A stretch of 19,664 nucleotides of DNA from a virus (IMGVR_UViG_2667527633_000005), one strand, 5' to 3'; shown: positions 1 to 15,032, counted from the stretch's first letter. Numbers and translations: made by a program. The notes: generated from the letters alone by a model not told the origin.

Positions 1-177
1 CTACCNNNNNNNNNNTACTTTTGCGCCTCCCAGCCGGACCGGCGCTGCGGCGTAATACGCGGCAATTTCACCAATCCAGCCGGTCAGCCTTTCCCGCTGC
101 TCCTGACTGTTCGCGCCCAGAATAAAATCCATCGCTGACTGCGTATCCAGCTCACTCTCAATGGTGGCGGCATACAT
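1..177 (-). CDS. hypothetical protein, 5' portion only (runs off window start; N-run 6..15 inside)
   Basis: Minus-strand frame opening with ATG at 177..175 (MYAATIESELDTQSAMDFILGANSQEQRERLTGWIGEIAAYYAAAPVRLGG...). Absent from the ORF track because there is no stop in the window. No family recognised. Confidence 0.3.
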   Translation of the reverse strand: MYAATIESELDTQSAMDFILGANSQEQRERLTGWIGEIAAYYAAAPVRLGGAKVXXXX

Positions 178-257
178 CGCCTTTATGAAAAGACAGGAAA
201 AAATAAAATTTAAAAACAGTACATTACGAATGCTCAGACCTATCGTTTAAAGGAGTC

Positions 258-279
258 GCAATACACACTGCAATACACG
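258..279. repeat. left copy of 21-bp direct repeat gcaatacacaCtgcaatacac (two tandem GCAATACAC half-sites); candidate att/arm-type site at left island end
   Basis: Matches 10950..10970 (gcaatacacaTtgcaatacac) at 20 of 21 positions; a further GCAATACACA copy lies at 10920..10929 beside the integrase start. Confidence 0.45.
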
Positions 280-312
280 ATTATTTATAAGATGAGCGGC
301 ATCCGTCATAAA

Positions 313-551
313 GCTGGTGGATGCTTTTTCTATGCATATATGCACAGTTTTAGTGGGCGTTAATGTCGATATAGGGATCCCCATATCGAGATTGGATACC
401 TGGCTTTTTTCCGGTTAACCTTTAATCAGGCTGGTGGGCTTTACCTGTTTTGTATGAGTGGTCATCATGACCATGTCATAACAAAAACCCCATATTCGTG
501 GTTTTTCTGTGTCGGGCTATTCTGTCGTTGCTGTGCTGATTTGGCTGGTGG
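313..551 (+). other. cluster of three Chi octamers 5'-GCTGGTGG-3' in one orientation (313..320, 430..437, 544..551)
   Basis: Exact octamers read directly from the sequence within 240 bp of non-coding DNA; palindromes GTCGATATAGGGATCCCCATATCGA (367..392) and GGTCATCATGACC (461..473) lie between them. Confidence 0.75.
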
Positions 552-617
552 GCTGAATCATCATTACGGCGATGCAGCTATGTAGACGTTCCGGCCTCCT
601 CAAATTGAGGATTGTGG

Positions 618-778
618 AAGAATCAATGGGTTAGTCTTACTTTCCCGACATCCCCCAATGGGGGTTTTCGAAACAATCAATAGCTTAGGCTTACTTCCCC
701 GATTTCCTGCATTGCAGGTTTTCGAAATAATCAATGGGTTAGGCCATCGTGCAATTTTGCACTTTGCCAGCCAGCGCA
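618..778 (+). repeat. tandem ~55-bp repeat array (about 2.5 units), each unit with ATCAATGGGTTAG..CTTACTTCCCGA plus a short GC-rich hairpin followed by TTTTCGAAA
   Basis: Units begin near 622, 678 and 731. Hairpins: CCCCCaatGGGGG (about 652..668), CCTGCattGCAGG (706..718), GTGCAAttTTGCAC (759..772). A second repeat family GCCAGCGCAAT..CGCGTTATC occurs near 768..795 and 955..984. Confidence 0.6.
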
Positions 779-992
779 ATGTCGCGTTATCAGTCCTCAG
801 ATGTGAGGGATGTAGCCAGCTTTTCCCCCAGTGGGGGATATCCAGCACCGACGGCTTAACTGTGCGTGCCAGCACAAGGTAGCCTTGAACTACTTACTGC
901 ATCCCATCTTACAGGCCGTGCCTTCCTGCTTAACTTTTTGCAATGCAACAAGTCAGCCAGCGCAATTTTGCGTTATCGGGAATATCAGCAAG

Positions 993-1274
993 TTACCGCC
1001 GCAATCGTTCCGGCTTCTTCCACTGGTAAGTATTTTTCGCGCTCTCCCTCCGTTGTTGAGAACGGCGACGATATGCCAGCAACTCAAGGACTCTTGTTCG
1101 TATGTTGCGCATATCCACGCCGTTAAGCTCAATACCGTCACGGCGCATCACCTCAGCCACTACACGCACATAATTATCTGCGGTCACGCTGTCCGGCTGC
1201 GTGGCCTGTTCGTCATGCTGCTTGCTGATTCCACAAGCACGGCGGATTAATCGCAGTATTTCGGATTCAGTCAT
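993..1274 (-). CDS. hypothetical small protein (93 aa) with arginine-rich C-terminus
   Basis: ORF with ATG at 1274, directly downstream of the terS-like gene on the same strand; C-terminus RRRSQQRRESAK..KKPERLRR suggests nucleic-acid binding. Weak RBS, no family recognised. Confidence 0.4.
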   Translation of the reverse strand: MTESEILRLIRRACGISKQHDEQATQPDSVTADNYVRVVAEVMRRDGIELNGVDMRNIRTRVLELLAYRRRSQQRRESAKNTYQWKKPERLRR

Positions 1275-1356
1275 AGCGTACTACGTTACTTATCTTTATT
1301 CGGCTGCAACTTATCCGGTACGTTTCCGGCAGTTTCCATCAGATAATCGGACAGCA

Positions 1357-1827
1357 TCAGCGGTATGTTTTCGTCAAGTTTTGCGCATGCGTTACAGGCT
1401 CTGATAACTTCTTTTTCAGTCCATCCAGCATAGACGGCTTCATGTCGGGAAACTTCCTTGTCATGGCAAGCGGCAGGCTGTCCATGATTGAAGAAATCTG
1501 ACTCGCCAATTTTGAAAGCACGTATATACAAAACGCTGTATCAATAACGTCGCCGCGTTCGCGCTCGTTTTTAAGCTCCTGCGCCTCTGCCTGTGCTGTC
1601 AGCAATCTGATCCTGACTCGTAGGAGTTCATCATCATCAATCTCGCCTTTGTCGTCTGTAATCTGGTTAATTGCATTGCTAACCCGATTGTCTATTACGC
1701 TGGCAACATCATAAAACGCCTCGCGGCCTTTACGTTCAACGGGAGTCACTCCCCACTTGTCGAACGCTGTCGCACTTACACGGCAGCTTTGCGCCATGTT
1801 TTTTTTGTTCATCAGGTGCGATTTCAT
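1357..1827 (-). CDS. terminase small subunit, phage lambda Nu1-like
   Basis: LLTAQAEAQELKNERERGDVIDTAFCIYVLSKLASQISSIMDSLPLAMTRKFPDM aligns with lambda Nu1 (..RLTRAQADAQELKNARDSAEVVETAFCTFVLSRIAGEIASILDGLPLSVQRRFPEL) as I recall it. Start placed at ATG 1827 (GGGGA RBS 5 nt upstream); the track ORF begins at GTG 1839. Lies about 135 bp downstream of cosN, as in lambda. Confidence 0.85.
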   Translation of the reverse strand: MKSHLMNKKNMAQSCRVSATAFDKWGVTPVERKGREAFYDVASVIDNRVSNAINQITDDKGEIDDDELLRVRIRLLTAQAEAQELKNERERGDVIDTAFCIYVLSKLASQISSIMDSLPLAMTRKFPDMKPSMLDGLKKKLSEPVTHAQNLTKTYR

Positions 1828-1939
1828 CAATATCCCCACTTAAGTAATGTTTCAGGTTGGTGTATTGGCTTTATCTTTTCCTTTTTATTCATAGAGATAG
1901 AGCGAACAACAAAACCACCACCAGCACCCGAAAAAGGCT

Positions 1940-1990
1940 CATAAATAGCGAAAACCCGCGAGGTCGCCGCCCCGTAGCCTACCGGATCGC
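1940..1990 (-). other. lambda-type cohesive-end site (cosN core = reverse complement of 1961..1972, GGGCGGCGACCT, plus conserved flank)
   Basis: Minus strand reads ..ACG GGGCGGCGACCT CGCGGGTTTTCGCTATTTATGAg.., matching the lambda left-end/cosN sequence from memory; positioned immediately upstream of the Nu1-like gene. Confidence 0.8.
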
Positions 1991-2028
1991 CGGAAAGGAC
2001 CCGCCAGCCAGAACGGGCCCTAATTTCA

Positions 2029-2412
2029 TCAACCAATCAACTTATAGCGACCATCCCGTGCATTGCGACGTACACGCTCAATCTTGAGGCATAGCGCCGC
2101 ATCTGGCTTTTTTGGGACAGGTACGCGGCAATATTCAGAAGATCGAGGAATATTGTTTATCCAGTCGATCACTTCACTTAAATACCAGGCCTTACGCCCT
2201 TCCGTAACCTGCACACGCTCCGGGAACTCTCCACTAGCCTCAAGGTTTAGCAATGTGCGACGGCTAAGGGTAGTAAGTTCCATCACCTGATTCATATCAA
2301 CAAGGCGTTCACTTAAACGCATTTTGTCAGCAATAGCCTTTAATTCCTCTACTGCTGGATCCGGATACATCATTTCGGCAATTGGCTTAAGGTCATTGTA
2401 ATGATTCTGCAT
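2029..2412 (-). CDS. AlpA/excisionase-like HTH regulator (127 aa)
   Basis: Central segment MELTTLSRRTLLNLEASGEFPERVQVTEGRKAWYLSEVIDWI resembles the AlpA/Xis-type winged HTH; GGGGGA RBS 4 nt before ATG 2412; sits between the decoration gene and cos. Confidence 0.55.
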   Translation of the reverse strand: MQNHYNDLKPIAEMMYPDPAVEELKAIADKMRLSERLVDMNQVMELTTLSRRTLLNLEASGEFPERVQVTEGRKAWYLSEVIDWINNIPRSSEYCRVPVPKKPDAALCLKIERVRRNARDGRYKLIG

Positions 2413-2423
2413 TGTATCCCCCT

Positions 2424-2765
2424 TTACACACGAGCCAGCGGCTGAACAGAAATACCTGAGCCAACAAACGCGGCAACCTTTGCCGACAGTTCTTTTACAG
2501 ACTCAGGCCAGTTCAGAGCATCAACATTTAAAACACCTGTCTTATAAACCTGTGCCTGTGTTTTTTTCGCTGTGTCGATTTGTACAGCGGAAACATAAAC
2601 CGCTTTACCTACGCTCGAACCATCCCATACCACCAGTGCACCTGTTGCATCTTCCTGCATCAGTGGCGTAAATGCAGGAATTACCCCTTTATTAGCTGAA
2701 AATATCCCCAGCGTAGTCACCAGTGCTTCAGTGCCAGCCATGAGTTCAGTGTAATGAGTAGCCAT
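2424..2765 (-). CDS. head decoration protein, phage lambda gpD-like
   Basis: TPLMQEDATGALVVWDG..VYKTGVLNVDALNWPE..AAFVGSGISVQ parallels lambda gpD (TPLMLDTSSRKLVAWDG..FYKSGTFRYEDVLWPEA..TAFAGTAISIV, from memory); GGGGGAG RBS overlaps the stop of the upstream capsid gene. Confidence 0.8.
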   Translation of the reverse strand: MATHYTELMAGTEALVTTLGIFSANKGVIPAFTPLMQEDATGALVVWDGSSVGKAVYVSAVQIDTAKKTQAQVYKTGVLNVDALNWPESVKELSAKVAAFVGSGISVQPLARV

Positions 2766-2774
2766 TGCTCCCCC

Positions 2775-3815
2775 TTAGCCAATGCGAACGGTAACAAAAC
2801 GATTGATGCGGGCCGGTATTGGCTGTGGTGCTGAATGTGTCTGCACATATTCAATAGCCGGATCACCAGGCACAATATAGTTTTTCGGTGCAAGTTCGGC
2901 TTTAGTCAGCCCCATTCGGATTAGCTCCGGATCCTGAATACCGCCATAGGCGACAATCCCCTGAAGAGCCGTATTGCCAAGCACCATCAAATCAGGATCA
3001 AGGAAATGTTTTTCTGTTCCGTCCTCGTCGGTATAACGCCCGCTGTAAACAACAATCGCAACATCGCCCATATACCCTTTAAAACTCACCGAATCACCAA
3101 GGTCTTTAAGGGCCGTTTCCAGTTCGGAATTAGAACCACGACGGGTATCCAAAGCCTCTTTTATCGCTCTGAATGAACGGTATTTCTTCCATACATTACC
3201 ACCCATAATGATGATATTAGTGACGCCCTCACTAAATTCTGCGTAGCTCTCAATATCATCATTTGGATCAAAAGTTTCTTTATCCTTACCTGACCACTCA
3301 GTACCGCCAGACTGAGTGATGATATTTTGTGGTTTTATATTCCAGTCCAGCTCATAACGTTCAATACCATCGCCCTCAATGATATTTTTCCCCGTTGTGA
3401 TTGCCTGAACAGCAAGCCATTCAATACGTGCACGAATAGCTTTAGCCTGATTTACAATCGCCTGTTTAACTTTAATATTACGTGCCCCAAAAGCATTGTA
3501 TTGCTCAGGTGATACACCAGCAGGGCGCACAGCTAACTTATTTGGATCAATGCTGCTTTTCGGCTTCATATAGCCTGGACGAATTGTTTTTGATTCGTAC
3601 CCTTCGTCACGTGAAACTTTACTACCCACCATAGGAGAACAAAACGCTGCAATTGGGATATTTGGATCGTCGATTGTATCAAGAATAATATCGCGCGATT
3701 CAAACATTACCGAGCGAGTAAAAAACAAACTGGTAAACAACGCATTTAGTTGTTTTTGTACATCTACAGCATTAACCACCTGTACAAGCTGAGTAGGCGA
3801 ATATAAATCAACCAT
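2775..3815 (-). CDS. major capsid protein, phage lambda gpE-like
   Basis: Long collinear match to lambda gpE, e.g. NIITQSGGTEWSGKDKETFDPNDDIESYA..YRSFRAIKEALDTRRGSNSELETALKDLG..YMGDVAIVVYSG..MVLGNT. Start set at ATG 3815 (AAGAGG 6 nt upstream; aligns with the gpE N-terminus); the track ORF extends to 4028, but a stable hairpin at 3990..4020 argues against that extension. Confidence 0.85.
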   Translation of the reverse strand: MVDLYSPTQLVQVVNAVDVQKQLNALFTSLFFTRSVMFESRDIILDTIDDPNIPIAAFCSPMVGSKVSRDEGYESKTIRPGYMKPKSSIDPNKLAVRPAGVSPEQYNAFGARNIKVKQAIVNQAKAIRARIEWLAVQAITTGKNIIEGDGIERYELDWNIKPQNIITQSGGTEWSGKDKETFDPNDDIESYAEFSEGVTNIIIMGGNVWKKYRSFRAIKEALDTRRGSNSELETALKDLGDSVSFKGYMGDVAIVVYSGRYTDEDGTEKHFLDPDLMVLGNTALQGIVAYGGIQDPELIRMGLTKAELAPKNYIVPGDPAIEYVQTHSAPQPIPARINRFVTVRIG

Positions 3816-3989
3816 ACGCATCCTCTTTGCATTCATTAAAAATAATTGTGGATATATGCTACCACCGATATTTGTCATGCGAACACATGCAACCGAGTGC
3901 AATGTTGTATAAAGTTTTGGGGTGACAACTTCAGTGCGGACAATTAGTGTTAATATCTTCACTCCCTTTGGTCGGGATTTATGTAGCAT

Positions 3990-4020
3990 GCCGGAAAATT
4001 TATTTTTTCCGGCCTTTTTT
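3990..4020 (+). terminator. intrinsic-terminator-like hairpin (GCCGGAAAA-tttatt-TTTTCCGGC followed by a T-run), plus-strand orientation
   Basis: Perfect 9-bp stem 3990..3998/4005..4013 with T6 at 4015..4020, in the gap between the SSB-like stop (4032) and the capsid gene; on the minus strand it is a hairpin without a U-tract. Confidence 0.4.
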
Positions 4021-4031
4021 ATTGGCAATAT

Positions 4032-4481
4032 TTAAAACGGGATATCATCTCCCCATTGCTCATTATCTCCCACTGGTGGCTGGCTTCCTTGCTGATCTGC
4101 CTGTTGTTTTGCTCTGTTCAGTTCGTCAGTAGCCTGCCCCTGTTGGCCTTTTTTGCCGCCCGGTCGCGCCGTTCGCGCACTGATTACGCTGTCTGCGATA
4201 ACCTGCCAGCCCCGCCGCGTTTCGCCGTTCTGGCCTGTCCACTGGCTTACCTGCATGTTACCCGCCACGCTCACCAGTTCGCCTTTGTGGTGTTTTGCCA
4301 GTGCGTCGGCCTGTCTGCCAAACGCCAGGACGGATAACCACATCGTCGCCGTTCCGTCATCTGCCTGGCTGCACGGCAGGGGAACCGCCATACTCGCCAT
4401 CGCCATTTGTGTCCCTTTGCTGGTGGTCTTTAACTGCGGGTCAGCCACCAGCCGCCCGTAAGCCGCTATCTGTGCTGTCAT
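4032..4481 (-). CDS. single-stranded DNA-binding protein-like (C-terminal acidic DDIPF tail)
   Basis: Ends ..NEQWGDDIPF, the hallmark SSB C-terminal tail, preceded by a Gly/Gln-rich linker and an N-terminal domain compatible with an OB fold; overlaps the upstream ORF by 4 bp. Confidence 0.65.
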   Translation of the reverse strand: MTAQIAAYGRLVADPQLKTTSKGTQMAMASMAVPLPCSQADDGTATMWLSVLAFGRQADALAKHHKGELVSVAGNMQVSQWTGQNGETRRGWQVIADSVISARTARPGGKKGQQGQATDELNRAKQQADQQGSQPPVGDNEQWGDDIPF

Positions 4482-4792
4482 GCTGTCTGCTCTCCGGTTT
4501 TAACATTGATGGTTGTCACCTGTTCCGCTTCGGCAATCTCCCGTTCTGTCAGCGTGGCAAAGTTTGCCGCTGCTGTGGTCATGAATGCGCTTATCAGGTC
4601 GGGATGTTCCTTCGCGTATCCTGCCCGTGTGTGGTGGTCTATCGCTTTGATTGCCACCTTTAAGGAAAGCTCTGTCATGTCTAACGCTTTATATTTTGCC
4701 TGTGTTCTGTCTCTGCGAATTTTGGTCATTTGTCGCCCCTGATTCATGTTTTCGGCTGGCATGTTTATTAAGTGATTTTTATGTATGCGCAT
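4478..4792 (-). CDS. hypothetical protein (104 aa; start uncertain, several in-frame ATGs)
   Basis: ORF immediately downstream of the iteron origin and translationally coupled to the SSB-like gene; no family recognised. Confidence 0.45.
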   Translation of the reverse strand: MRIHKNHLINMPAENMNQGRQMTKIRRDRTQAKYKALDMTELSLKVAIKAIDHHTRAGYAKEHPDLISAFMTTAAANFATLTEREIAEAEQVTTINVKTGEQTA

Positions 4793-4843
4793 TTATTTTC
4801 ACCCCCCCCTCGTTTAAAAAGTTTTTAGTTGTGCCTCCCCCCC

Positions 4844-5061
4844 TCTACCCATCTACCCGAATGCTCATCATGTCAGTAATGGCGCGGCTTTCAGCGGGTA
4901 GATAGCTTTTTGACTCCTCTACCTGCCGTCTACCCTGCTACCTGAAACTGATAAAATCAGGTAGAAGAGGTAGAGAGCTTTTATTAGCCTTCTACCTAGC
5001 CCTATACCCACTTATCATGTTGAATAATATGCGTTTATTTTGTTCAGGTAGATGGGGTAGA
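4844..5061. repeat. iteron array (TCTACC forward, GGTAGA inverted; at least 10 copies) with adjacent AT-rich DNA: putative replication origin of the island
   Basis: TCTACC at 4844, 4852, 4918, 4929, 4991; GGTAGA at 4897, 4960, 4969, 5047, 5056 (pairs spaced 8-11 bp); AT-rich stretches at 5018..5045 and 5066..5090; immediately 3' of the primase/helicase gene. Confidence 0.6.
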
Positions 5062-5077
5062 TGGCTTTTACAAAAAA

Positions 5078-6832
5078 TTATAAAAACGCGTCGCAATCGT
5101 CTGTTGTAATTGCGTTGGTCTGCGTTACTCCCTTAACTTTTCGCGTAATATATTCATGCCCGTAAACTTTCGCCGCTGGCTTCATGGCCTTGCTGAACTC
5201 AGCCACGTTTAGCGGTTTGCTCCTGCCCGCGTATGCCATAAACGCCAGATAGACGCGGTAAAGGCTGTTCCTGGTCGTGTACTTCACTGAATCACCACCG
5301 CCACCCATCATCAGGCCGCGCGCTTCCTCCAGAAAATTCAGGAACTGGCAAAACTCAATAACCGGATCCGTCTGTTGCTTTATTGCCAGTGCTTCATCAC
5401 CGTCACGCTGTTCCAGTAGTAAAGCCCGTGCCTTCTCAGGGTCGGTAAAGTTCGCCAGCAATCGGCGGATAATAACGGGGATTTCAGCCGCAATCTTTTC
5501 CGGTAGCTCCCTGTCTTTTTCGGCCTCACTGACGATATTGTCGAAACGGAAAATCACGCGACGACGTGCCACACCTCCGGCCCGTTCGGTGAATATCATC
5601 GGGTTGTTGTTGGTCGCCAGCACCACCGCCCTGATTACCGCCGTGAAACGCTTTTCATATTTCGGGTTAATTTCCACGGGGTCGCCGCCTGTGATTTTCT
5701 TGATGCCCGTTCCTTCGCCTGTATATTTCGGCTGGTCAGCCAGGACGATAAGACGACTCCCGACAACCTGCGCACGTCCACCAGCATCATCAAGCGATGT
5801 CATTTCAGCGCTTACCGTGTTCTGTTTCCCTGCCAGAAGGCTGGCTATGTGTGTGAATGTACTTTTACCGCTCCCGCCGTCTCCGGTGGCCTCAATAAAC
5901 ATCTGCCAGTCGTACCGGTTCGCCATAATCATGTACAGCGCGGCACATATACGCATCATCTTGCGCGGGTCTTTTCCGGCTGCGTGCTCAAGCCATTTAT
6001 GAAAGTTTGGCGCGTTATCGCGGATGTTCTCCCCTGGTGCTGGTGGCGTGTACTCAATGCCGTTGTGCGTGGTGATCCAGTTCTCCGGCGTGTGCGGGGA
6101 AAATTCCCCCGTTTTCAGGTCAAGCGCACCATTGGCGAACGGCAGCAAATCGCCAGACGGCTCGCCCATTGGTTCGGCAATAACTTTTAACGCTTCCACG
6201 GCGTTATTGATTACGCGCTTGCTGAAAGTGGCCCTGTGCTCTGAATAGATCGCCACCATTTCGCGGCTAAGTTCCATTGTGCTGACCGGACACCATACCC
6301 CGCCGCGCCATACGTGAACGATTTCACTTTCAGGATGTACGCAAACGCCATCAAAGCGATCGGCAAGCAACTGCGCGCGCTCACTGTCCGCCATCTGCGA
6401 AAGTTGCGCCTTTTGCTTTACCGGAAGCTCAATGACCAGACCATCAGAAAGATTCTGGCGTTCACGGGCCAGATATTCGCGCCAGTTCTGCACCTCCTGG
6501 CCGTGCATACCCTCAGGATAAAAATTTGCATCCTGTACGCCTGCTGCCGCCAGCTTCTGACCAATCGCCTTTATCATTACAGGCGCAAGATATCCGGCCC
6601 TGTATATGCGTGCTGATTTTCGGCCTTCCGGCACAATTTGCAGATTATCCAGTTCGGATAGCTGCTGCTCCCCAAGCCACACAGGAGGCTCATTATCTCC
6701 GGCCATACGCGCATCATGTTCCTGCCATTGTTTCGCGTGTGCCCAGGCATCACTACCCGCAAAAATAATGACTTCTGTTCCTTTGTGTTTTATGCCGCGT
6801 GACTGCTGTTTTACGTTCGGTGCCAGTTTCAT
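5078..6832 (-). CDS. P4-family primase/helicase (Pri-Rep-like replication initiator)
   Basis: 584-aa ORF with Walker A IEATGDGGSGKSTFTHIASLLAGK and a C-terminal region typical of phage/plasmid P4-type primase (D5_N/SF3 helicase-like); the position (small ORFs, pri, then iteron ori) matches satellite replication modules. Confidence 0.9.
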   Translation of the reverse strand: MKLAPNVKQQSRGIKHKGTEVIIFAGSDAWAHAKQWQEHDARMAGDNEPPVWLGEQQLSELDNLQIVPEGRKSARIYRAGYLAPVMIKAIGQKLAAAGVQDANFYPEGMHGQEVQNWREYLARERQNLSDGLVIELPVKQKAQLSQMADSERAQLLADRFDGVCVHPESEIVHVWRGGVWCPVSTMELSREMVAIYSEHRATFSKRVINNAVEALKVIAEPMGEPSGDLLPFANGALDLKTGEFSPHTPENWITTHNGIEYTPPAPGENIRDNAPNFHKWLEHAAGKDPRKMMRICAALYMIMANRYDWQMFIEATGDGGSGKSTFTHIASLLAGKQNTVSAEMTSLDDAGGRAQVVGSRLIVLADQPKYTGEGTGIKKITGGDPVEINPKYEKRFTAVIRAVVLATNNNPMIFTERAGGVARRRVIFRFDNIVSEAEKDRELPEKIAAEIPVIIRRLLANFTDPEKARALLLEQRDGDEALAIKQQTDPVIEFCQFLNFLEEARGLMMGGGGDSVKYTTRNSLYRVYLAFMAYAGRSKPLNVAEFSKAMKPAAKVYGHEYITRKVKGVTQTNAITTDDCDAFL

Positions 6833-7128
6833 TTTTTACCTCTGAATCCGTTAATCATGGTTTTCATTTTCTGGATATTTCCCCACGCTTTTTCCCTGCT
6901 GATGGGCTTACTGCGGGGTGCGGCATATACCAGGGGAAAATCACGCCGGAACTGATAAACAGGCATCACGCAGTCATAGCTATACCCCTCACGGCGGTAA
7001 GTGATGCGCCGTTCTGCCACGCCTTTAATCGTTACCGTGCCGCCGTATTTATCGCGGTAAATATCGCCGTTCATAAATTCAGGTCGAGCGGGGCCGCTGG
7101 CAATAAAGCCAGAATTTTTCATTTCCAT
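6829..7128 (-). CDS. hypothetical protein (99 aa)
   Basis: ORF overlapping the primase start by 4 bp (coupled); no family recognised. Confidence 0.5.
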   Translation of the reverse strand: MEMKNSGFIASGPARPEFMNGDIYRDKYGGTVTIKGVAERRITYRREGYSYDCVMPVYQFRRDFPLVYAAPRSKPISREKAWGNIQKMKTMINGFRGKK

Positions 7129-7145
7129 ATTATTTATTCCTCGAC

Positions 7146-7367
7146 TTAACTCGACTTATTTGATAGCAGGGCACTATTTATTGCGTCATTGAGTTTTTCT
7201 GCTGATTCATCAATAAGTGACAACAGGCCATAAGCAATATTTGCATCTTCATTGTCATTTATGCAATCAAGCCACATATTTAATATTGCTTTTGCTGAAT
7301 TATTTAAAGTTAATGAACTTTCTGCACATGCTAACAATTTAAAAAAGACTTCCCGTTCTGTATTCAT
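7146..7367 (-). CDS. hypothetical protein (73 aa), encoded in a visibly AT-rich segment
   Basis: ORF in the same operon string; local base composition is much more AT-rich than the flanking genes. Confidence 0.4.
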   Translation of the reverse strand: MNTEREVFFKLLACAESSLTLNNSAKAILNMWLDCINDNEDANIAYGLLSLIDESAEKLNDAINSALLSNKSS

Positions 7368-7559
7368 TTAATCCCCCACCAGCTTACTTTCTTCCTCAAT
7401 CAAAAAACTAGCGACACTTCCCGAAAGACGCGCCAGTAGGCTCGCCAGTGCGGATATATCAGCATCTGTAATTTTGTTCGGGTATACCTCAAGAAGGCGG
7501 CAAATAATTTCTGTCTGGTGCGCACGTTCAGCGGCTTCGTGTAATGTAATTTCCTGCAT
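7368..7559 (-). CDS. hypothetical protein (63 aa)
   Basis: ORF abutting its neighbours with no gap (7367/7368; shares nt 7559 with the upstream ORF). Confidence 0.4.
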   Translation of the reverse strand: MQEITLHEAAERAHQTEIICRLLEVYPNKITDADISALASLLARLSGSVASFLIEEESKLVGD

Positions 7560-7744
7560 TAATGCACCTCTTTTAATTCATACACTGCTGAAATAATGAC
7601 TTGTGATAAGCCATATTCTGATGATTCGCTTCTCACCGCAGCAATAGCCGTCTGAACATTAACAGCCTTCACATTCTGAGCGATACCAATTGTGTGGCCT
7701 ATTGGGTTAACAGCTCGGGCAAATACACGGAAGGTTTTAAGCAT
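7559..7744 (-). CDS. hypothetical protein (61 aa), first gene of the leftward operon
   Basis: ATG at 7744 preceded by GGGAG (6-nt spacer); lies immediately downstream of the divergent control region. Confidence 0.45.
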   Translation of the reverse strand: MLKTFRVFARAVNPIGHTIGIAQNVKAVNVQTAIAAVRSESSEYGLSQVIISAVYELKEVH

Positions 7745-8025
7745 GACTCACTCCCTGGCGGATTTTTGCAGCGAATACAGCAACACAACCGGACGGGCAA
7801 CGGCTACGCGCTTCGCGTTCCGTCCAGGCGGTTACGTGGATGATTTGAGATTCTCCGGCACTCAGTGCCAGAAAACGCCACACAAAGGCCGTTTGTGTGT
7901 GTACAAGGTGTGGTATATGATTTACAGCAACCATAACGGCTCCTAGTTTACGTTGTTGGTTAGACGCCCCGTATGTGTTCCCAGCACTGCGGGGCGTTGC
8001 TCTTTGTATTTCAACAATCCTTTCG

Positions 8026-8103
8026 GTGTGTTTCATGTTATGAGCGCATGAAACACACGTCAAGGCTTTTTGTATTTCTTTTTTTGTGTATACTGAAACA
8101 CAC
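8026..8103. promoter_or_regulatory. operator-like sites in the divergent control region: GTGTGTTTCATG-N9-CATGAAACACAC (8026..8058) plus a third TGAAACACAC (8094..8103) overlapping a TATACT -10-like hexamer (8089..8094)
   Basis: Perfect 12-bp inverted repeat read directly; located 20-100 bp upstream of the RHH gene start (8125, AGGAG RBS) and within the 380-bp gap separating the two divergent transcription units. Confidence 0.5.
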
Positions 8104-8124
8104 CGATGATTAGGAGTTTCAGAA

Positions 8125-8430
8125 ATGGCAACGGCTAACAAAAACGCAAAATCACAACTGACAACTGTCAGAGTCCCACTAGATGTTATGCAAGGGATGG
8201 AATCCGTTAAGCTGGACGGTGAAAGCAATGCCGGATTTATCGTAACCGCCATGCGCGGAGAAATAGCCCGCCGCCAAGCAGAAGGCAGCGGAGAAAATCC
8301 CCTTGTGTCGTCACTGGATGCCCTGGCTAAGGTCGAACAAATCGGCATCAAAGCAGCCGAGGAGATCGGGCAACTCGTCACCGTCGCGCGTGAAGAACTC
8401 CAGCGACGCAAGGTCAAAGAGCATGAATAG
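8125..8430 (+). CDS. ribbon-helix-helix (CopG/Arc-like) DNA-binding protein; candidate island repressor
   Basis: N-terminal LTTVRVPLDVMQGMESVKLDGESNAGFIVTAMRGEI has the strand-helix-helix pattern of RHH regulators; strong AGGAG RBS; transcribed opposite to the main island operon. Confidence 0.55.
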   Translation: MATANKNAKSQLTTVRVPLDVMQGMESVKLDGESNAGFIVTAMRGEIARRQAEGSGENPLVSSLDALAKVEQIGIKAAEEIGQLVTVAREELQRRKVKEHE

Positions 8431-8487
8431 CCAATATCAGCGCCATAGTTTGAGGAACGCAGGCGCATTGCTTTACAGGACAGCACC

Positions 8488-8667
8488 ATGAGCGACACAG
8501 AATCAACCAAAACACCATCACCAACTCGTAAGAGACGACGCAAAAATATAGCGCATGAACATGAATCAGAAAGATTCGCACCTTGTTCGTTTGCTCTTGA
8601 GAAATTCCTTAAAGAGCACAGGAAAAAGCTCTCGTTGCAAACCTTGGAACGAACCAAATCTGACTGA
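8488..8667 (+). CDS. hypothetical small basic protein (59 aa)
   Basis: ATG 8488 to TGA 8665..8667 (MSDTESTKTPSPTRKRRRKNIAHEHESERF...), below the ORF-track length cut-off; follows the RHH gene and precedes a strong terminator. Confidence 0.4.
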   Translation: MSDTESTKTPSPTRKRRRKNIAHEHESERFAPCSFALEKFLKEHRKKLSLQTLERTKSD

Positions 8668-8733
8668 TCACATTGCCCACCAGCCGCAAATGTGGCATTG
8701 TTGGTGATGCTTTTGTTTTCCCTTGTTCCCACT

Positions 8734-8765
8734 GGCGACCCTTTTGCGGTCGCCTTTGTTTTGTC
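8734..8765 (+). terminator. rho-independent terminator (GGCGACC-cttttgc-GGTCGCC followed by TTTGTTTTGTC)
   Basis: 7-bp GC-rich stem with T-rich tail, read directly; placed between the convergent plus-strand pair and the Bro-N gene. Confidence 0.6.
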
Positions 8766-9342
8766 ACTGAATGCGGTTACCAAAGTAAAACTCAGGCTGA
8801 TATTCACGTATCAGCGTTTTTTCTTCTTCCTCCAGCTCACGCTTTTTGCGCTTACATGCCTGTAGCTCCCTCCCCTTCTCGCTGGCACTTATTTGATATT
8901 GCTCTTTACGGCGGGAAAAATCCTGTAATGCACCCCACGGGATACCATAAGTCCCCGTTTTTCTGATACCTGGTATCACATTTCTGAATACCCAGTTACT
9001 GAAACGATGAGCAAATGTGCCAGGCGTCGTTGCTTTGCGGCTGCGGGCTATTAGTTTGTAGAAACCTGACTCAGAGATAATTCTCATATTCTGATTTCCT
9101 CCTGGGGTGTAAGTTAAATTTACTCCCTTTTCATCATCATCAAGCATCTGCAACGCCGTACGCGAATTGGTTAGTTCCAGCGCAGCACAAACATCTTTTG
9201 CAACAAACCACGGATCGCCGTTCAGATACACCACACGAACGTTCACACTATCAAAGCGCAGAACGACGAGATCACGAATATCGCAGAATTTTTTCACTGG
9301 ACGAGCGTACCCCTTGCCCGTCACGGCAATATTTTTATTCAT
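8764..9342 (-). CDS. Bro-N domain protein (phage antirepressor-like) with coiled-coil C-terminus
   Basis: N-terminal region (..NGDPWFVAKDVCAALELTNSRTALQMLDDDEK..) is typical of Bro-N/AntA DNA-binding domains; C-terminus is charged and heptad-like (RELQACKRKKRELEEEEKTLIREY). Confidence 0.75.
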   Translation of the reverse strand: MNKNIAVTGKGYARPVKKFCDIRDLVVLRFDSVNVRVVYLNGDPWFVAKDVCAALELTNSRTALQMLDDDEKGVNLTYTPGGNQNMRIISESGFYKLIARSRKATTPGTFAHRFSNWVFRNVIPGIRKTGTYGIPWGALQDFSRRKEQYQISASEKGRELQACKRKKRELEEEEKTLIREYQPEFYFGNRIQ

Positions 9343-9362
9343 CGCGTTTTTACCTTATAGAC

Positions 9363-9385
9363 AAAAAACCCCTCGTGATGAGGGG
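9363..9385 (-). terminator. rho-independent terminator on minus strand (CCCCTC-gtgat-GAGGGG; U-tract from the A6 run 9363..9368)
   Basis: Hairpin 9369..9385 directly downstream of the alpA stop (9399), followed on the minus strand by six U. Confidence 0.5.
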
Positions 9386-9398
9386 CATTATTTACTGG

Positions 9399-9656
9399 TT
9401 ATTGCTGTTTTGTTTTTCCAGGTTTCCATCCAGGATGCCACTCACCACGGATCCATGCCTGAACCTCTGAAAGTCGATACCCTGCAGCACGTTCACCGAT
9501 CTTGATACGTCGCGGGAATTTACCTGCCTGCTCCATTTTCCAGCGTGTTGAGTTTGCCAGCGTGGTAAGTGCTATGCACTCTTTTTCACGAATGAACCGA
9601 TCAATGTCCTTCATTGTGCGCAAATCGTTTTCATCAACAAGAGAATAAATTGCCAT
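9399..9656 (-). CDS. alpA: AlpA-family transcriptional regulator / excisionase-like protein
   Basis: 85 aa; ..CIALTTLANSTRWKMEQAGKFPRRIKIGERAAGYRLSEVQAWI is typical of AlpA (prophage CP4-57 regulator family); start is 2 bp after the integrase stop. Confidence 0.85.
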   Translation of the reverse strand: MAIYSLVDENDLRTMKDIDRFIREKECIALTTLANSTRWKMEQAGKFPRRIKIGERAAGYRLSEVQAWIRGEWHPGWKPGKTKQQ

Positions 9657-9657
9657 A

Positions 9658-10899
9658 TCACACCACCTCTTTATTAAGCTCGATAACGTTGTTGTTAAAT
9701 CCTGCTATCGTATTAAGGTAATTAACCCACATATTAAGCACCTCAAGTTTTTTCTTTATATGCCTGCTTTTATTGTAAACACCAGCAACCCCTTTCACTT
9801 TATGACCTAAAAGAAGTTCGACAATATAAGGATCCGCCCCCATATCATTAAGCGTAGTGGAAAATGTGCGCCTGAAATCATGTATGCACCACAAGCCATT
9901 AGTATCATGACCAAGACGCCTGCATATTCTGTTTGCAGCCCCTGTTATTGTCGCCCTTTGCAAAGCACAACCGACAACATAACCGCGATTTTTTGTTTCT
10001 GCGTAAAGATTAACGATCCATTGTTTTATTCCGTCAGGAACAGGCCTTACTATAGCCTCCTTGTTTTTGCTGTGCTCTTTTGGGACTGTCCATACCCAGT
10101 TTTTTAAATCCCATTCGTCCCAGGTGGATAGCCTCGCCTCCTGCTGTCGGCAACCAAACACCAGGCAGATAACCATTATTCTTCGGTTATATATTGATGA
10201 CAGAGTTAGCAAATTATTACCGTAAGCATAAGACCATACATCAGCGGTTTCATTGATATTAAGAACGCGATCCCTTATACCGGATGAGCGCCCGACATAA
10301 CTTACGTTAATATCTCCAAAGGGATCGCACGCGATGTATTGCCTGACGCGACAAAAACGCAACGCCTGTTTGATATCAAGAAAAATTGCACCAGACATAA
10401 CAGGCGCATTTTTTTTGATCCTGTCAAAGACGGTAAGCCATGTGTGTAATTTGCACTGTTCTATAGCCATATCACCGATATAGGGGAAGATATGCTTTTC
10501 AAATCGTTTTATTAAATATTCATGCTCTTTTCTGGCTGTTGTGGCGTGATTGTCGTACCAGTAAAACAGCGCATCCCTTACGGTCACTGGTTGCATAGTT
10601 TTTTCGGCAGCAAGTTTTATTTGCCTGCGGGGGTCCAGATTTTCAGCCAGCCATTCACGGCACTGATCACGCATGCGCCTGGCCGTTGCAAGAGACATGT
10701 CAGGATAGCGACCAAGTGTAAGCCATACCGGAGGGGATTCCCTGCCACCAAGACGATAGTAAAAAACAAAGCTGATCCCCCCAACCATGCTTACACGCAC
10801 AGACAACCCGCGCCCATCCGCTATTGTTTTTTGTTTGTCCTGCCGTTTTCCGACAAGACTCTTTAACAGTTTGTCACTGAGTTTGTTTTCAATAGCCAT
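9658..10899 (-). CDS. int: tyrosine site-specific integrase, P4-type
   Basis: 413 aa; N-terminal arm-binding-like region (LSDKLLKSLVGKRQDKQKTIADGRGLSVRV..FYYRLGG); C-terminal catalytic motifs HDFRRT..LLGH..GVY; GAGGG RBS 7 nt before ATG 10899. Confidence 0.95.
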   Translation of the reverse strand: MAIENKLSDKLLKSLVGKRQDKQKTIADGRGLSVRVSMVGGISFVFYYRLGGRESPPVWLTLGRYPDMSLATARRMRDQCREWLAENLDPRRQIKLAAEKTMQPVTVRDALFYWYDNHATTARKEHEYLIKRFEKHIFPYIGDMAIEQCKLHTWLTVFDRIKKNAPVMSGAIFLDIKQALRFCRVRQYIACDPFGDINVSYVGRSSGIRDRVLNINETADVWSYAYGNNLLTLSSIYNRRIMVICLVFGCRQQEARLSTWDEWDLKNWVWTVPKEHSKNKEAIVRPVPDGIKQWIVNLYAETKNRGYVVGCALQRATITGAANRICRRLGHDTNGLWCIHDFRRTFSTTLNDMGADPYIVELLLGHKVKGVAGVYNKSRHIKKKLEVLNMWVNYLNTIAGFNNNVIELNKEVV

Positions 10900-10919
10900 T
10901 AAAAGCCCTCAAGAGATTT

Positions 10920-10970
10920 GCAATACACACCCATCCCGATCGCCAATTTGCAATACACATTGCAATACAC
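10920..10970. repeat. right copies of the GCAATACACA repeat (10920..10929; 21-mer gcaatacacaTtgcaatacac at 10950..10970); candidate attR/arm-type or AlpA/Int operator sites
   Basis: Direct repeat of 258..278 (20/21 identical); located in the integrase promoter region. Confidence 0.45.
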
Positions 10971-11174
10971 AAAACCGCGAAAAACTGGAAGGGTGATGAA
11001 CGGTCATCAAAAGCATGGAAAACGACATTCCAGACGCAGCAAGGGTTTCAGTGGAGTTGGCGAACGATGCGGGCAACTACGGTGAGATGATAGACATAAA
11101 TCGCCTTCACAATGGCGCTCTGCAGCTGCGTGTTCTGCAGCGTGTCGAGCATCTTCATCTGCTNNNNNNNNNNT

Positions 11175-11468
11175 GCCGGTTTTAAGGGGTTAATTTCTTC
11201 AAAAGTCAAATCTCGCCCGCAATGCTGTGACGATGACGCGATGATCATTTGTGGATGTATGGCTCGCCTGAAAAAAAACAACAGCGATTTGCATGATTTA
11301 TTGGTGGACTATTATGTCGGCGGCATGACTTTTATGGCGCTTGCACGTAAGCATGGGCGATCTGATTGTTGGGTTGGCAGGATGCTCCAGAAAGCTGAGG
11401 GCGTAGTGGAGGGCATGCTGATGGTGTTGGATCTCCGATTGGAGATGGATGCTGATTGTTCGAAATAA
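11175..11468 (+). CDS. phage antitermination protein Q-like, C-terminal portion (N-terminus lies across the N-run 11164..11173)
   Basis: ..[68 protein letters not shown]..: Cys cluster plus a sigma-region-4-like HTH, resembling small lambdoid Q proteins (DLP12 QuuD type, from memory). Context supports this: a terminator about 100 bp downstream and a lysis cassette further on. The track ORF's MALCSC.. N-terminus across the Ns is probably not real. Confidence 0.4.
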
Positions 11469-11566
11469 TTAAAAGAAAAGTTGCTGTCTGATTGTCATTA
11501 GTCTAACATTTTAAATGTTGGAATCGCAACGTAGTTATTATCATATAACAGCTTGTTTCCTGATTT

Positions 11567-11598
11567 AGCCAGCCTCCCCAAAGGCTGGTTTTTTTTCT
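11567..11598 (+). terminator. rho-independent terminator (CCAGCC-tccccaaa-GGCTGG + T8), tR'-like position downstream of the Q-like gene
   Basis: Hairpin 11569..11588 and T-run 11589..11598 read directly; a possible -35/-10 (TTGTCA ..TTAAAT) lies near 11495..11525. Confidence 0.55.
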
Positions 11599-11624
11599 AA
11601 TAAGTATCATTTCGGGTAGGGATT

Positions 11625-12149
11625 TTATTGTTTAACCCATAATAATTCATTGACATTGAATCCCAGCTTTTGAGCGGTTCGCACATAGTCTGCTTTTACT
11701 TTATCTGGAATAGTTGGGGTCCTTGCCAGAATCCATAGGTATTCTCTGTTCGGACCACTGACAAGAGCATACTTATACTCATCATCCAGTTTGATTACAT
11801 TATAGCCACCATAGAAGGGGCCAAAAAACGAAACCTTCAACGCTGCAGTTTTAGTATCTCCAGTAAAGTATGCTTTACCTTCGCTCTCGCTCCATTTATT
11901 TTTCGTTGGATCGTATCCACGGTTAAGTACACGAATCCCTCCGTCGTTCCGTTTTCCATAAGTAGCGCTGACCTGTTCCAGACCACGTTCGAACCGGTTC
12001 TCGAGGCGAGCTATTTCATACCATTTTCCGAGATAGCGGTTGGCGTCAAAATTTGTAATCGGCTGCACACCTTTAGGTGGTGTCGGGGCCTTACATGCTA
12101 TAAGAGTGAAAGAGAGTGCAATGCCAGTCAACACAGGCCATAACTTCAT
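11625..12149 (-). CDS. blc: outer-membrane lipoprotein lipocalin Blc
   Basis: Lipoprotein signal ..LTGIALSFTLIACKAP then NFDANRYLGKWYEIARLENRFERGLEQVSATY..GKAYFTGDTKTAALKVSFFGPFYGGYNVIKLD..YLWILARTPT, clearly Blc-like but only moderately similar to E. coli K-12 Blc; start set at ATG 12149 (AGGA RBS) rather than the track's 12209. Confidence 0.85.
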   Translation of the reverse strand: MKLWPVLTGIALSFTLIACKAPTPPKGVQPITNFDANRYLGKWYEIARLENRFERGLEQVSATYGKRNDGGIRVLNRGYDPTKNKWSESEGKAYFTGDTKTAALKVSFFGPFYGGYNVIKLDDEYKYALVSGPNREYLWILARTPTIPDKVKADYVRTAQKLGFNVNELLWVKQ

Positions 12150-12341
12150 AATAAATCCTGTACTTTTGATAGTTGAGGGTAAGTATGAAAGATAGATGAT
12201 TACGACCAATCACTTAAAGAACTTTTATACTATATTAGGAATAGTCCATAACAGAAAAATTGTCAGTGATGACGCCAGAAAGGCAATTTATTCCGTGCAC
12301 TACACAGTTTATCTGTTAATGAATTAGTCAAGGGGGAGGAT

Positions 12342-13301
12342 ATGATAAAAAAACCTGTGATTGGAATCAGCGGTTGTTTGGCCGGTTCTGCTGTTCGTTT
12401 TGATGGTGGTCACAAAAGAGCTGACTTTTTAATGGACAAATTAGTGGAATGGGTAACATTCAGACCAGTATGTCCGGAAATGGCTATAGGGCTGCCAGTT
12501 CCGCGTCCTGCTCTACGTCTTGTGCGCTCGACGCAAGGAAATATACGGATGTGTTTCAGCCACGACCAGAATGAGGATGTGACAGAGAGAATGACAGAGT
12601 TTAGTCGTTCTTATATGGACAAATTAAAGGATGTATCGGGGTTTGTGGTTTGTGCTAAATCTCCCAGCTGTGGCATGGAGCGCGTGCGTGTCTATGATGA
12701 AAATGGTAATCGAGGTCGTAAAGATGGAGTGGGACTATTTACGAGCACTTTGATGGAAAAGTTTTCTTGGCTACCGGTTGAAGAGGATGGGCGATTACAT
12801 GATCCAGTGCTTCGTGAGAATTTTGTTGAAAGAGTTTTTGCTTTGCATGAGCTCAATCACCTTTACAAGGAGAAATTATCAAGAAGAGAGTTATTAGCTT
12901 TTCATAGTCGTTATAAGCTTCAGTTGTTGGCGCATAGTCAGGCAGGCTATAAAGATATGGGACCATTTGTGGCTGCAATACACGAGTGGGCGGACCTTGA
13001 ATCATTCTTTGAGGTGTATCGTGATAAGCTGATGGCGATTCTCATAAAACCTGCATCACGTAAAAATCACACGAATGTGCTGATGCATATACAGGGGTAT
13101 TTTAGTAACTACTTAAGTACACGCCAGCGTAAAGAGTTGAGCGAGGTTATACTTAACTATCGTTCTGGCACATTGCCTCTTCTTGCGCCGTTGACTCTGC
13201 TGAAGCATTATCTGGGTGAGTATCCTAATGATTACTTGCTTACACAGAATTACTTCGATCCCTATCCGGAAGAACTGGCTTTAAGACTGATGGTGAATTA
13301 A
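12342..13301 (+). CDS. DUF523 (TudS-like) / DUF1722 fusion protein
   Basis: N-terminal domain with three spaced cysteines (GISGCLAG, PVCPE, SPSCG) as in DUF523 [4Fe-4S] proteins, C-terminal half YbgA/DUF1722-like; strong RBS AAGGGGGAGG; AT-rich gene. Confidence 0.6.
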   Translation: MIKKPVIGISGCLAGSAVRFDGGHKRADFLMDKLVEWVTFRPVCPEMAIGLPVPRPALRLVRSTQGNIRMCFSHDQNEDVTERMTEFSRSYMDKLKDVSGFVVCAKSPSCGMERVRVYDENGNRGRKDGVGLFTSTLMEKFSWLPVEEDGRLHDPVLRENFVERVFALHELNHLYKEKLSRRELLAFHSRYKLQLLAHSQAGYKDMGPFVAAIHEWADLESFFEVYRDKLMAILIKPASRKNHTNVLMHIQGYFSNYLSTRQRKELSEVILNYRSGTLPLLAPLTLLKHYLGEYPNDYLLTQNYFDPYPEELALRLMVN

Positions 13302-13780
13302 CTGTATGCGATATCATCTGAAAGTGATGAGTTCCTGCATGCAGGATATTTACAATCGTAAAAACTACACTATGATACCCATAGTGTCAGTTTGTATAAA
13401 AATCCTGTTCACGCTGAAGAAAATATTGAGATGCAATTTAATGTTGGTAAATATACCAGCCCCAAAATATTTTATTCAATCTGTTTTTATATAAAGATAT
13501 TTCAAGCGAATATTAAGAGCATATAATATTATTATTGCACGCAGCTATTATAATATAACAGATTAGTTTAATGATTTTTTGCGAGTTAAACACATGCTTT
13601 TATAGTTGTGATGCAATGAGATTTTCCTTATTGTTGAACTGGCGAATATTGATTACCCACCTATACTTACCTGGTGTAACCCCAATGATATCAGGTGGAT
13701 AATATGCCATACATATGTTCTATGGTGATGCCTCTAATTAGTTGAGTCTGATGTATAATACGGGCTTTTGAGGTTATCTC

Positions 13781-14053
13781 ATGGCCAGAGTTAATATTCA
13801 TTGTCCCCGTTGTCAGTCAGCTCAGGTTTACCGCCATGGTCAGAACCCTAAAGGCCGTGACAGATTTCGCTGCCGTGACTGCCACCGTGTGTTTCAGCTC
13901 ACTTATACTTATCAAGCACGTAAGCCGGGTATGAAAGAGCGGATAACTGAAATGGCCTTTAATGGTGCCGGGGTTCGCGATACCGCCAGGACACTGAAAA
14001 TTGGTATTAACACCGTCATCCGGACTTTAAAAAACTCGCGCCAAAGCGAATAA
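13781..14053 (+). CDS. insA: IS1 transposase InsA
   Basis: MARVNIHCPRCQSAQVYRHGQNPKGRDRFRCRDCHRVFQLTYTY.. has the same zinc-finger/HTH pattern as IS1 InsA ([45 protein letters not shown].., from memory). Confidence 0.85.
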   Translation: MARVNIHCPRCQSAQVYRHGQNPKGRDRFRCRDCHRVFQLTYTYQARKPGMKERITEMAFNGAGVRDTARTLKIGINTVIRTLKNSRQSE

Positions 14054-14439
14054 CTTCTTCGCCTGTTGCCCATGCTGATGTGGCGCTTATCTGCGAGCTT
14101 GATGAGCAATGGAGCTACGTTGGCAGTAAAGCCCGGCAACACTGACTCTGGTACGCGTACAACACCAAAACAGGCGGTGTACTGGCCTACACTTTTGGTC
14201 CCCGAACCGATCAAACGTGCCGGGAGCTACTGGCACTGCTTACACCCTTCAATATCGGCATGCTGACCAGCGATGACTGGGGCAGCTATGGCCGGGAGGT
14301 GCCGAAGAATAAGCATCTGACCGGCAAAATATTCACCCAACGCATTGAGCGTAATAATCTGACGCTACGCACCCGTATTAAGCGGTTGGCTCGTAAAACA
14401 ATCTGCTTCTCACGCTCAGTTGAGATCCACGAAAATTAA
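14029..14439 (+). CDS. insB: IS1 InsB segment (-1 frame; expressed as InsAB' by programmed frameshift at TTAAAAAAC 14027..14035)
   Basis: -1 frame encodes ..[73 protein letters not shown].., matching the IS1 InsB catalytic region; ends at TAA 14437..14439, earlier than canonical InsB. Confidence 0.7.
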
Positions 14440-14606: not shown

Positions 14607-14684
14607 AAAAACACATGATGTAACGTGATGCGTTTTAATGATTTTGTAATTTTCGTATTTGATAATTTTATGATGCTTTCAGCT

Positions 14685-15028: not shown

Positions 15029-15032
15029 TTCA

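Follow-up and report, generated by a model that had tools for sequence, protein, structure and literature searches.

The island lies within a lambdoid portal gene

The window analysed here is the whole 19,664-nt viral stretch IMGVR_UViG_2667527633_000005, a scaffold interrupted by runs of ten N (N10) at 6-15, 11164-11173, 16762-16771 and 19622-19631. The piece at 16-11163 (11,148 bp) carries an island with integration, replication and packaging genes, and reads as lambda gpB portal at both ends. The 3' half of the lambda gpB-type portal gene, which belongs to the helper prophage, occupies 16-183 on the minus strand and runs off the contig end at the N10 join; the 5' half, together with one copy of the attachment (att) core (11100-11107), occupies 11100-11163 on the same strand and is cut by the next N10 join. 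The sequence-only reading of this DNA had counted the portal among the genes missing in the window, mistakenly, since both halves adjoin the island. The block can very probably be assigned to the published site group B:Phage_portal_2:241 of helper-embedded phage-inducible chromosomal islands (HE-PICIs), as a 10.9-kb satellite lying within, and co-oriented with, the portal gene of a lambdoid prophage.

The junctions fall at 183/184 and 11099/11100, inside the 8-bp block ATCGCCTT (176-183 and 11100-11107), and the HE-PICI body spans 184-11099 on the minus strand (10,916 bp, or 10,924 bp including one core copy). The attR copy of this identity block, AAGGCGAT on the gene strand (176-183, minus), is the same block as in the published group B_Phage_portal_2_241. 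Minus-strand translation of 11161-11102 gives ...QMKMLDTLQNTQLQSAIVKA, after which the frame continues through 17 island codons to a stop, and that of 177-16 gives ...KA|MYAATIESELDTQSAMDF... The portal is split after codon 276 of 533 (lambda B), and the insertion brings no replacement sequence. On PF05136 (Phage_portal_2, current model version), the N-terminal fragment covers positions 2-237 and the C-terminal fragment 235-354, as measured on the fragments of our record L001. Joining the flanks at AAGGCGAT produced a single open portal frame (224-nt reconstruction of attB), which was 100% identical to uninterrupted genes annotated as 'phage portal protein' and was covered to at least 80% in 3120 of 5426 complete E. 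coli genomes. A left-junction probe, representing the occupied site, was covered to at least 80% in 59 of the 5426; in the other ~3100 genomes, the sampled matches comprise the portal half only and end at window position 183.

Direct repeats of 20/21 bp had been read as flanking the block. They exist, at 258-278 and 10950-10970, as described, but they are not the ends of the element, as both sit inside 184-11099; they were ruled out as att sites because the matches in the ~3100 genomes end at 183 and not at 257. The left repeat belongs to a doubled motif, tcGTGTATTGCagtgTGTATTGCga, at 257-279 (minus), which matches the attP motif tgTGTATTGCantgTGTATTGCa and probably represents integrase arm sites. 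The right repeat belongs to a second doubled motif at 10949-10971, accompanied by an extra half-site at 10920-10928 (together 10920-10971, minus). Measured from the centres of the core copies, the near edges of the doubled motifs are ~78 and ~133 bp away. An attP motif specific to HE-PICIs, tgTGTATTGCantgTGTATTGCa, was reported to occur twice, ~81 bp upstream and ~132 bp downstream of the attP centre (PMC10111431), so that the doubled TGTATTGC motif is found here twice with about the published spacing. A tRNA scan found none, and the island is therefore not a tRNA-site island.

To the left and to the right of the island, its contig ends within the portal gene, a pattern typical of drafts with several lambdoid prophages, and this is why the island appeared free-standing. 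This constitutes an annotation trap: draft assemblies leave such satellites on ~11-kb contigs broken in repeated prophage portal genes, and these contigs mimic free-standing islands bounded by what are in fact internal arm repeats.

Assignment to a published group of satellites

Satellites that have inserted into late genes of lambdoid prophages and share the orientation of these genes have been described as HE-PICIs (Tommasini, Mageeney and Williams 2023, NAR Genom Bioinform, PMC10111431). The supplement of that study lists group B_Phage_portal_2_241 with the identity block aaggcgat and with members including CP011416.1/3698288-3709185 and CP006834.2/1830842-1841738. The CP011416 and CP006834 copies were 98.9% identical to the island over 100% of its length, and the published attL and attR strings of the group matched the window flanks by eye. 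The late gene is split as in other HE-PICIs, with the flanks rejoining to an intact portal; the block aaggcgat stands at both junctions, and the Phage_portal_2 break at 235-237 places the insertion at the site of this group. The integrase scored 473 bits (54% identity) against that of the E:Phage_cap_E:80 HE-PICI of strain 104, above the 400-bit search cut-off used by PMC10111431 for the 11capE clade. Moreover, the island has the sequence properties of Gram-negative PICIs (Fillol-Salom 2018), namely int, alpA and pri/rep genes, an origin directly 3' of the latter, a length of about 10-15 kb, and no lysis or tail genes. It shares with the B:Phage_portal_2:241 group the site, the 8-bp block, the ~10.9-kb size, the doubled attP motif and the Integration-Bro-Replication-Late layout. 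Compared with the listed members, the differences are allelic only, consisting of a 27-bp indel (matched stretch of 10,713 vs 10,686 bp) and a private frameshift in the small terminase (TerS) gene terS. The indel most likely sits in ssb, whose product has 149 aa here and 140 aa in our record L002.

These results bear out the view that the block is a helper-dependent satellite of lambda-like phages, with its own integration, replication and cos/TerS modules and without portal, protease, large terminase (TerL), tail or lysis genes. The further suggestion that it represents an undescribed satellite family does not hold, as the element is catalogued as an HE-PICI (PMC10111431), and the int-alpA-pri...capsid-decoration-cos layout is also present in EcCICFT073. 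The element class, the site group and near-identical copies having been published in 2023, the window adds little as a discovery; what interest is left would appear to lie in the TerS/cosB variant within a known kind, the satellite lineage of gpE and gpD, and the Chi and hairpin-repeat observations described below.

Two other satellite types were considered and rejected. Capsid-forming PICIs (cf-PICIs) have in common with the island an int-alpA-primase front end and head genes, but their head module is complete, whereas Pfam and PHROGs scans of the island gave capsid, decoration and TerS homologues only, with no portal, protease, TerL or head-tail connectors. P4 shares with it the P4-family primase and the integrase; however, no sid, psu, delta or epsilon family was hit in the island (Pfam, PHROGs), its cos is lambda-type rather than P2-type, and its helper is lambdoid.

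Helper context in complete genomes

The piece at 16-11163, both flanks included, was 99.96% identical over 11,149 nt to E. coli JNE23-011 (NZ_AP045067). In this genome, the island lies between Nu1-A-W-B' and 'B-C-D-E-tail of a lambdoid prophage that is almost complete, and is co-oriented with it. Before the island, the prophage carries exo (with an internal stop), bet, gam, the repressor, a cro-like gene, O/P, Q, lysis genes and nohD(Nu1)-A-W-B'; past it follow 'B, the S49 protease, D, E and FI, and then the complete tail cluster as far as J, lom and stf. The int, alpA and primase genes of the island lie on the strand of Nu1-A-W-B and C-D-E and are thereby co-oriented with the interrupted late gene. 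The portal, protease, TerL and tail genes that seemed missing are those of the helper, immediately adjoining the island.

A 98.9%-identical island was found in EC28 in a different helper, of which E and Nu1 were 62% and 52% identical to those of the JNE23-011 helper. That helpers so divergent hold near-identical islands indicates recent mobility. Published helper names (.R,.icd,.PBP|ybhC) likewise point to differing chromosomal sites (PMC10111431).

Gene content and replication origin

Pfam scans covered all island open reading frames (ORFs), and PHROGs scans covered those to which Pfam gave no clear assignment. The profile searches confirmed the gene set that had been proposed (integrase, AlpA, Bro-N, primase, single-stranded DNA-binding protein (SSB), gpE/gpD, second AlpA and TerS), all on the minus strand. 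At the integration end, a P4-type tyrosine integrase of the HE-PICI clade (9658-10899; Arm-DNA-bind_3, Phage_int_M, Phage_integrase) is followed by AlpA of the excisionase/activator family (9399-9656) and the Bro-N protein (8764-9342), the latter two assigned by Pfam profiles. The stretch 6829-7934 (minus) encodes a DUF4222 protein, three small ORFs and an Icd-like protein (7737-7934). A YlcI/YnfO-family gene at 8125-8430 on the plus strand, taken from the RefSeq annotation, is the sole opposite-strand gene of the island. A 356-aa ORF at 7737-8807 was rejected as a gene, RefSeq having the Icd-like gene and the plus-strand YlcI/YnfO gene there. The JNE23-011 helper region carries a shorter member of the YlcI/YnfO family (L001, 18707-18901) just upstream of its own cos and Nu1.

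The P4-family primase/helicase is encoded at 5078-6832 (minus; D5_N, DUF5906, TIGR01613). An iteron origin directly 3' of it had been noted, and we found it at 4844-5061, where five copies of GGTAGA and five of TCTACC are concentrated, with zero elsewhere in the island. An 83-aa protein (4478-4729, minus; phrog_1231 and RefSeq annotation) and the SSB (4032-4481, minus; profile match) follow. In the late part, the second AlpA-family helix-turn-helix protein (127 aa, 2029-2412, minus) matched PF05930, phrog_2790 and PDB 8c3t at 7e-10, and the last gene of the island encodes a conserved 93-aa protein (993-1274, minus; phrog_1561). PADLOC, applied to ten island proteins (Bro-N, the second AlpA, DUF4222, Icd-like, YlcI/YnfO and five unassigned), returned zero defence genes. 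Rfam gave no match at the gathering threshold over the whole window or at E<=1 over 16-11163, so no C4-, isrK- or CI-type immunity RNA is detectable by these models.

Capsid and decoration genes

The gpE-like major capsid protein (346 aa, 2775-3815, minus) matched PF03864 at 2e-41. It was 42% identical to helper and lambda E, 55% to c1499 of EcCICFT073, and 99.7% to the copy in the E:80 HE-PICI; among 50,697 phage records, no relative above 60% identity was found. The gpD-like head decoration protein (113 aa, 2424-2765, minus; PF02924) was 38-45% identical to helper gpD and 54% to c1500 of EcCICFT073. Taken together, E, D and TerS of the island are only 34-45% identical to their helper counterparts. 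Judged by these identities, gpE and gpD form an old satellite lineage rather than a recent capture.

It had been proposed that the element supplies its own shell. In EcCICFT073, deletion of c1499 or c1500 left transfer and interference unchanged, the authors found no phenotype, and the packaged DNA was all phage-sized. As these homologues are 55% and 54% identical to the island proteins, the proposal is not supported, and gpE and gpD of the island are probably accessory, for example by co-assembly into helper shells or by modification of them.

The cos site and small terminase

The exact lambda cosN that had been noted is present, as the 12-nt cohesive end GGGCGGCGACCT at 1961-1972 (minus). 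A cosQ-like block (GGGTCCTTTCCGGCGATCC..., 1973-2002, minus) stands beside it, and cosQ, cosN and the next ~22 bp are conserved with both helpers and EcCICFT073; a 66-bp stretch here is 95% identical to the helper's own cos. The adjoining cosB region (1828-1960, minus) is private to the island, containing zero lambda R-site cores (CGTTTCC), which the helper has at +52, +113 and +153.

The Nu1-type terS gene (1286-1827, minus; 180 aa when intact) matched PF07471 and positions 8-195 of the 199 in phrog_57. Its nearest phage relative was N15 gp1 (47.6% identity), and lambda Nu1 was ~36-38% identical. Homology to N15 gp1 and lambda Nu1 is full-length, and in these phages, as in the island, the gene follows cos; unlike in N15 and lambda, this TerS comes from a satellite without TerL, and its cosB is without lambda R sites. 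The protein aligned with helper Nu1 over residues 6-167, and the C-terminal end ...LDE-IP-LLS-Y... is kept, as seen by eye. Lambda TerS binds TerL through its C-terminal ~40 residues. A sequence search of PDB with the island TerS matched neither the lambda Nu1 N-domain nor RppC, the N-terminal DNA-binding part being too diverged for sequence methods, and BLASTP detected no similarity to RppA. Rpp-type packaging is characterized by a short Rpp of 139-154 aa after cos without the TerL-binding end; a full-length TerS of 180 aa stands here instead. These features suggest that the satellite TerS reads the private cosB and may recruit helper TerL directly. Group B:241 is thus set apart from the studied models by a full-length TerS and a private cosB where EcCICFT073 has an Rpp, which raises the question whether its transfer needs helper Nu1.

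The window copy of terS has a run of five T at 1412-1416 where the reference has six, and the resulting frameshift replaces the last 41 residues by 17 unrelated ones. The longer run (six) was found in all 56 complete-genome copies, so the frameshift is unique to the window copy. Either the assembly is in error at this point, or the allele is private and probably defective in packaging.

Comparison with related satellites

The E:Phage_cap_E:80 HE-PICI (11capE type), as found in E. coli strain 104 (our record L007), shares the YlcI/Icd/small-ORF/DUF4222/primase/SSB backbone with the island. Between the two elements, gpE is 99.7% identical, and gpD and the second AlpA agree in size and annotation. 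E:80 HE-PICIs are likewise embedded co-oriented in a late gene, but in the capsid gene E instead of the portal gene. Past the second AlpA, the two diverge: the E:80 element of strain 104 has a lambda-like cosB, a truncated Nu1 start and HEPN/DUF262 cargo, whereas the island has a private cosB, a full terS, the 93-aa gene and a repeat tail. 11capE itself is without terS (PMC10111431). In strain 104, the segment L007 21480-21940 contains cosB with R sites and a 64-aa ORF beginning like Nu1 (MEVNK...), and the cosN position reads GGGCGTCAGGCGCGCAG, which is not the lambda sequence. The HEPN/DUF262 pair, which follows on the opposite strand, looks like defence cargo.

EcCICFT073, the model E. coli cos PICI (Fillol-Salom 2018, 2019), has a syntenic late module composed of c1499 (capsid), c1500 (decoration), one gene, cos, RppA (c1503) and a 93-aa protein. 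In addition to the 55% and 54% identities of capsid and decoration proteins, the 93-aa last gene is 76% identical. As in the island, cosQ and cosN are common with lambda, cosB is private, and the 3' tail has 54-nt modules and Chi sites. The gene preceding cos is unrelated between the two. RppA (144 aa) has at its N-terminus a winged helix-turn-helix related to Nu1, is without the TerL-binding end, and captures helper TerS. EcCICFT073 is chromosomal, lying beside phoQ in CFT073, whereas the island is embedded in its helper.

Proposed mechanism and alternative explanations

From the published time course of 11capE and the biology of lambda and EcCICFT073, we infer the following order of events. 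Upon helper induction, the entire composite would excise and replicate. Helper late transcription, antiterminated by Q, would pass through Nu1-A-W-B' and read into int-alpA. Late excision of the satellite would then restore the portal gene, the portal protein being makeable only from this point, and the satellite would replicate from its own origin. Satellite TerS, acting on the private cosB, would recruit helper TerL by its conserved C-terminal end, and TerL would cut the shared cosN. The heads that receive the DNA would be made with the portal, protease, scaffold and tails of the helper; most likely they are phage-sized and take up ~4-mers (43.7 kb). Lambda packages DNA of ~38-51 kb, and four copies of the satellite fall within this range. 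Published composites measure 56-60 kb (PMC10111431), in excess of it, so the helper would be unpackageable until the satellite leaves. A bolder scheme for the portal group, which we consider unlikely, is that an N15-like TerS and a private cosB have replaced the Rpp strategy, with helper TerL needed and helper TerS not; that gpE and gpD build or remodel shells of their own, making the element an intermediate between cos PICIs and cf-PICIs; and that the dense Chi sites, of which the Gam-encoding helper has none, guard against RecBCD.

According to the sequence-only reading, an ordinary prophage segment would be revealed if portal, protease, TerL and tail genes continued directly from the block. 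Such genes, together with gpD and gpE, do lie directly alongside, and the block holds homologues of gpE, gpD and Nu1; taken literally, this is the arrangement envisaged, and it would also suit a duplicated head module that is not a separate mobile element. We nevertheless regard an origin of this kind as extremely improbable, and an ordinary prophage segment is not what was found. The portal ORF into which the block is inserted is intact in ~3120 genomes, and taking the insert out at the 8-bp block restores the frame exactly; because the joined flanks restore that uninterrupted sequence, the block is to be read as a satellite inserted in its helper. Moreover, the block brings an integrase, AlpA, primase and origin of its own, its E, D and TerS differ from those of the helper to the extent given above, and near-identical copies reside in divergent helpers. 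A satellite on the way to cf-PICIs, in which gpE and gpD make satellite-specific and perhaps smaller shells on helper portal, protease and scaffold that are filled by its own TerS, is also a doubtful proposition. The two genes are intact and conserved (99.7% for gpE between B:241 and E:80, 55% to EcCICFT073), the lack of phage relatives more than 60% identical speaks for selection within satellites, and there are precedents in the SaPIbov5 capsid homologue (Ccm), which redirects head size, and in PmCI172, which makes small heads. The EcCICFT073 deletions were without effect on transfer and interference, however, its packaged DNA was phage-sized, and scaffold, protease and portal genes are absent from the island.

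The reading as a mobile HE-PICI of the portal group has several points against it. The published induction data concern 11capE, the founder of E:80, and not the portal group, and no virions or plaques were recovered (PMC10111431); excision and replication after induction were shown experimentally only for 11capE (PMC10111431). The helper context was derived through a 99.96%-identical complete genome, the window itself being a scaffold, and exo of the helper in that genome has an internal stop, so the helper may be partly non-functional. The terS frameshift of the window copy would remove the presumed TerL-binding end, and this copy is maybe packaging-defective, or a base was miscalled. It could accordingly be proposed that the window copy has lost its mobility and is decaying, inert, in a defective prophage that traps it, with the frameshift unique to this copy, the exo pseudogene and the truncated look of many HE-PICI helpers (PMC10111431) in its favor. 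We judge this quite improbable, for the remaining ORFs are all intact and match a copy whose terS is intact at 99.96% identity, the frameshift, located in a homopolymer run of a draft assembly, may be erroneous, and the family has recently spread among different helpers.

Chi sites and 3' tail repeats

The island contains 10 Chi sites (GCTGGTGG) in 10.9 kb, five per strand, at 313, 430, 544, 4419 and 6039 on the plus strand and at 1918, 4445, 5778, 7376 and 8677 on the minus strand. The three co-oriented sites at 313, 430 and 544 (313-551, plus) lie in the non-coding 3' tail. The window as a whole has 11 Chi sites, against a shuffle expectation of ~0.6 per 19.7 kb, and 0 of 200 shuffles reached this number. 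E. coli averages about one Chi per 4.6 kb, and relative to this average the island count has a Poisson probability of ~2e-4. No Chi was found in the ~39 kb of helper around the island, in 13.8 kb of the second helper, or in 37.5 kb of the CFT073 helper. Elsewhere, the O157 PICI has 10 in 9.5 kb, and the E:80 HE-PICI has only 3 in 11.3 kb. The Chi density may protect the satellite, which is without gam, from RecBCD. A literature search on Chi together with PICIs or satellites, judged by titles and abstracts, yielded no paper evidently concerned with Chi enrichment in PICIs. A Chi-rich satellite in a Chi-free helper provides a lead on how satellites without Gam survive RecBCD.

Three tandem 54-nt units are located at 591-752 in the non-coding 3' tail, each composed of a hairpin with a variable stem and then the conserved TTTCGAAAnAATCAAnGGGTTAG. 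In the stems (5-6 bp), 100% of cells were paired, four of the five pairs showed compensatory changes, and 0 of 500 shuffles was as good. Periodic 54-nt units were found in the 3' tails of three E. coli PICIs, namely the window element, the O157 PICI (L004, 9000-9305) and EcCICFT073 (L006, 3659-3850). The repeats had no Rfam match (E<=1 over 16-11163). On the plus strand, the unit hairpin followed by TTTT resembles a terminator, and antirepressor genes of Stx phages contain one 50-nt unit as well. A second module of PICI tails consists of the palindrome CGATATgGGGATCCCCATATCG, then CCTGGCTTTTTTCCGG, then Chi. It is present once in the window (360-440), once in EcCICFT073 (L006, reverse strand, ~3990-4010) and twice in the O157 PICI (L004, 9312-9460).

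Remaining sequence of the window

The stretch 11174-19664 was rejected as the true right flank of the island, as an N10 join precedes it and the 99.96%-identical complete genome is not collinear with it. It carries the C-terminal part of antiterminator Q, a Blc-type lipocalin (11625-12209), a TudS/DUF1722 protein (12342-13301) and IS1 InsA, and further a P21-type holin, DUF1327, a lysozyme and a GYF_2-domain protein. Together, they resemble the late/lysis region, with moron genes, of a lambdoid prophage, be it another one or the same.

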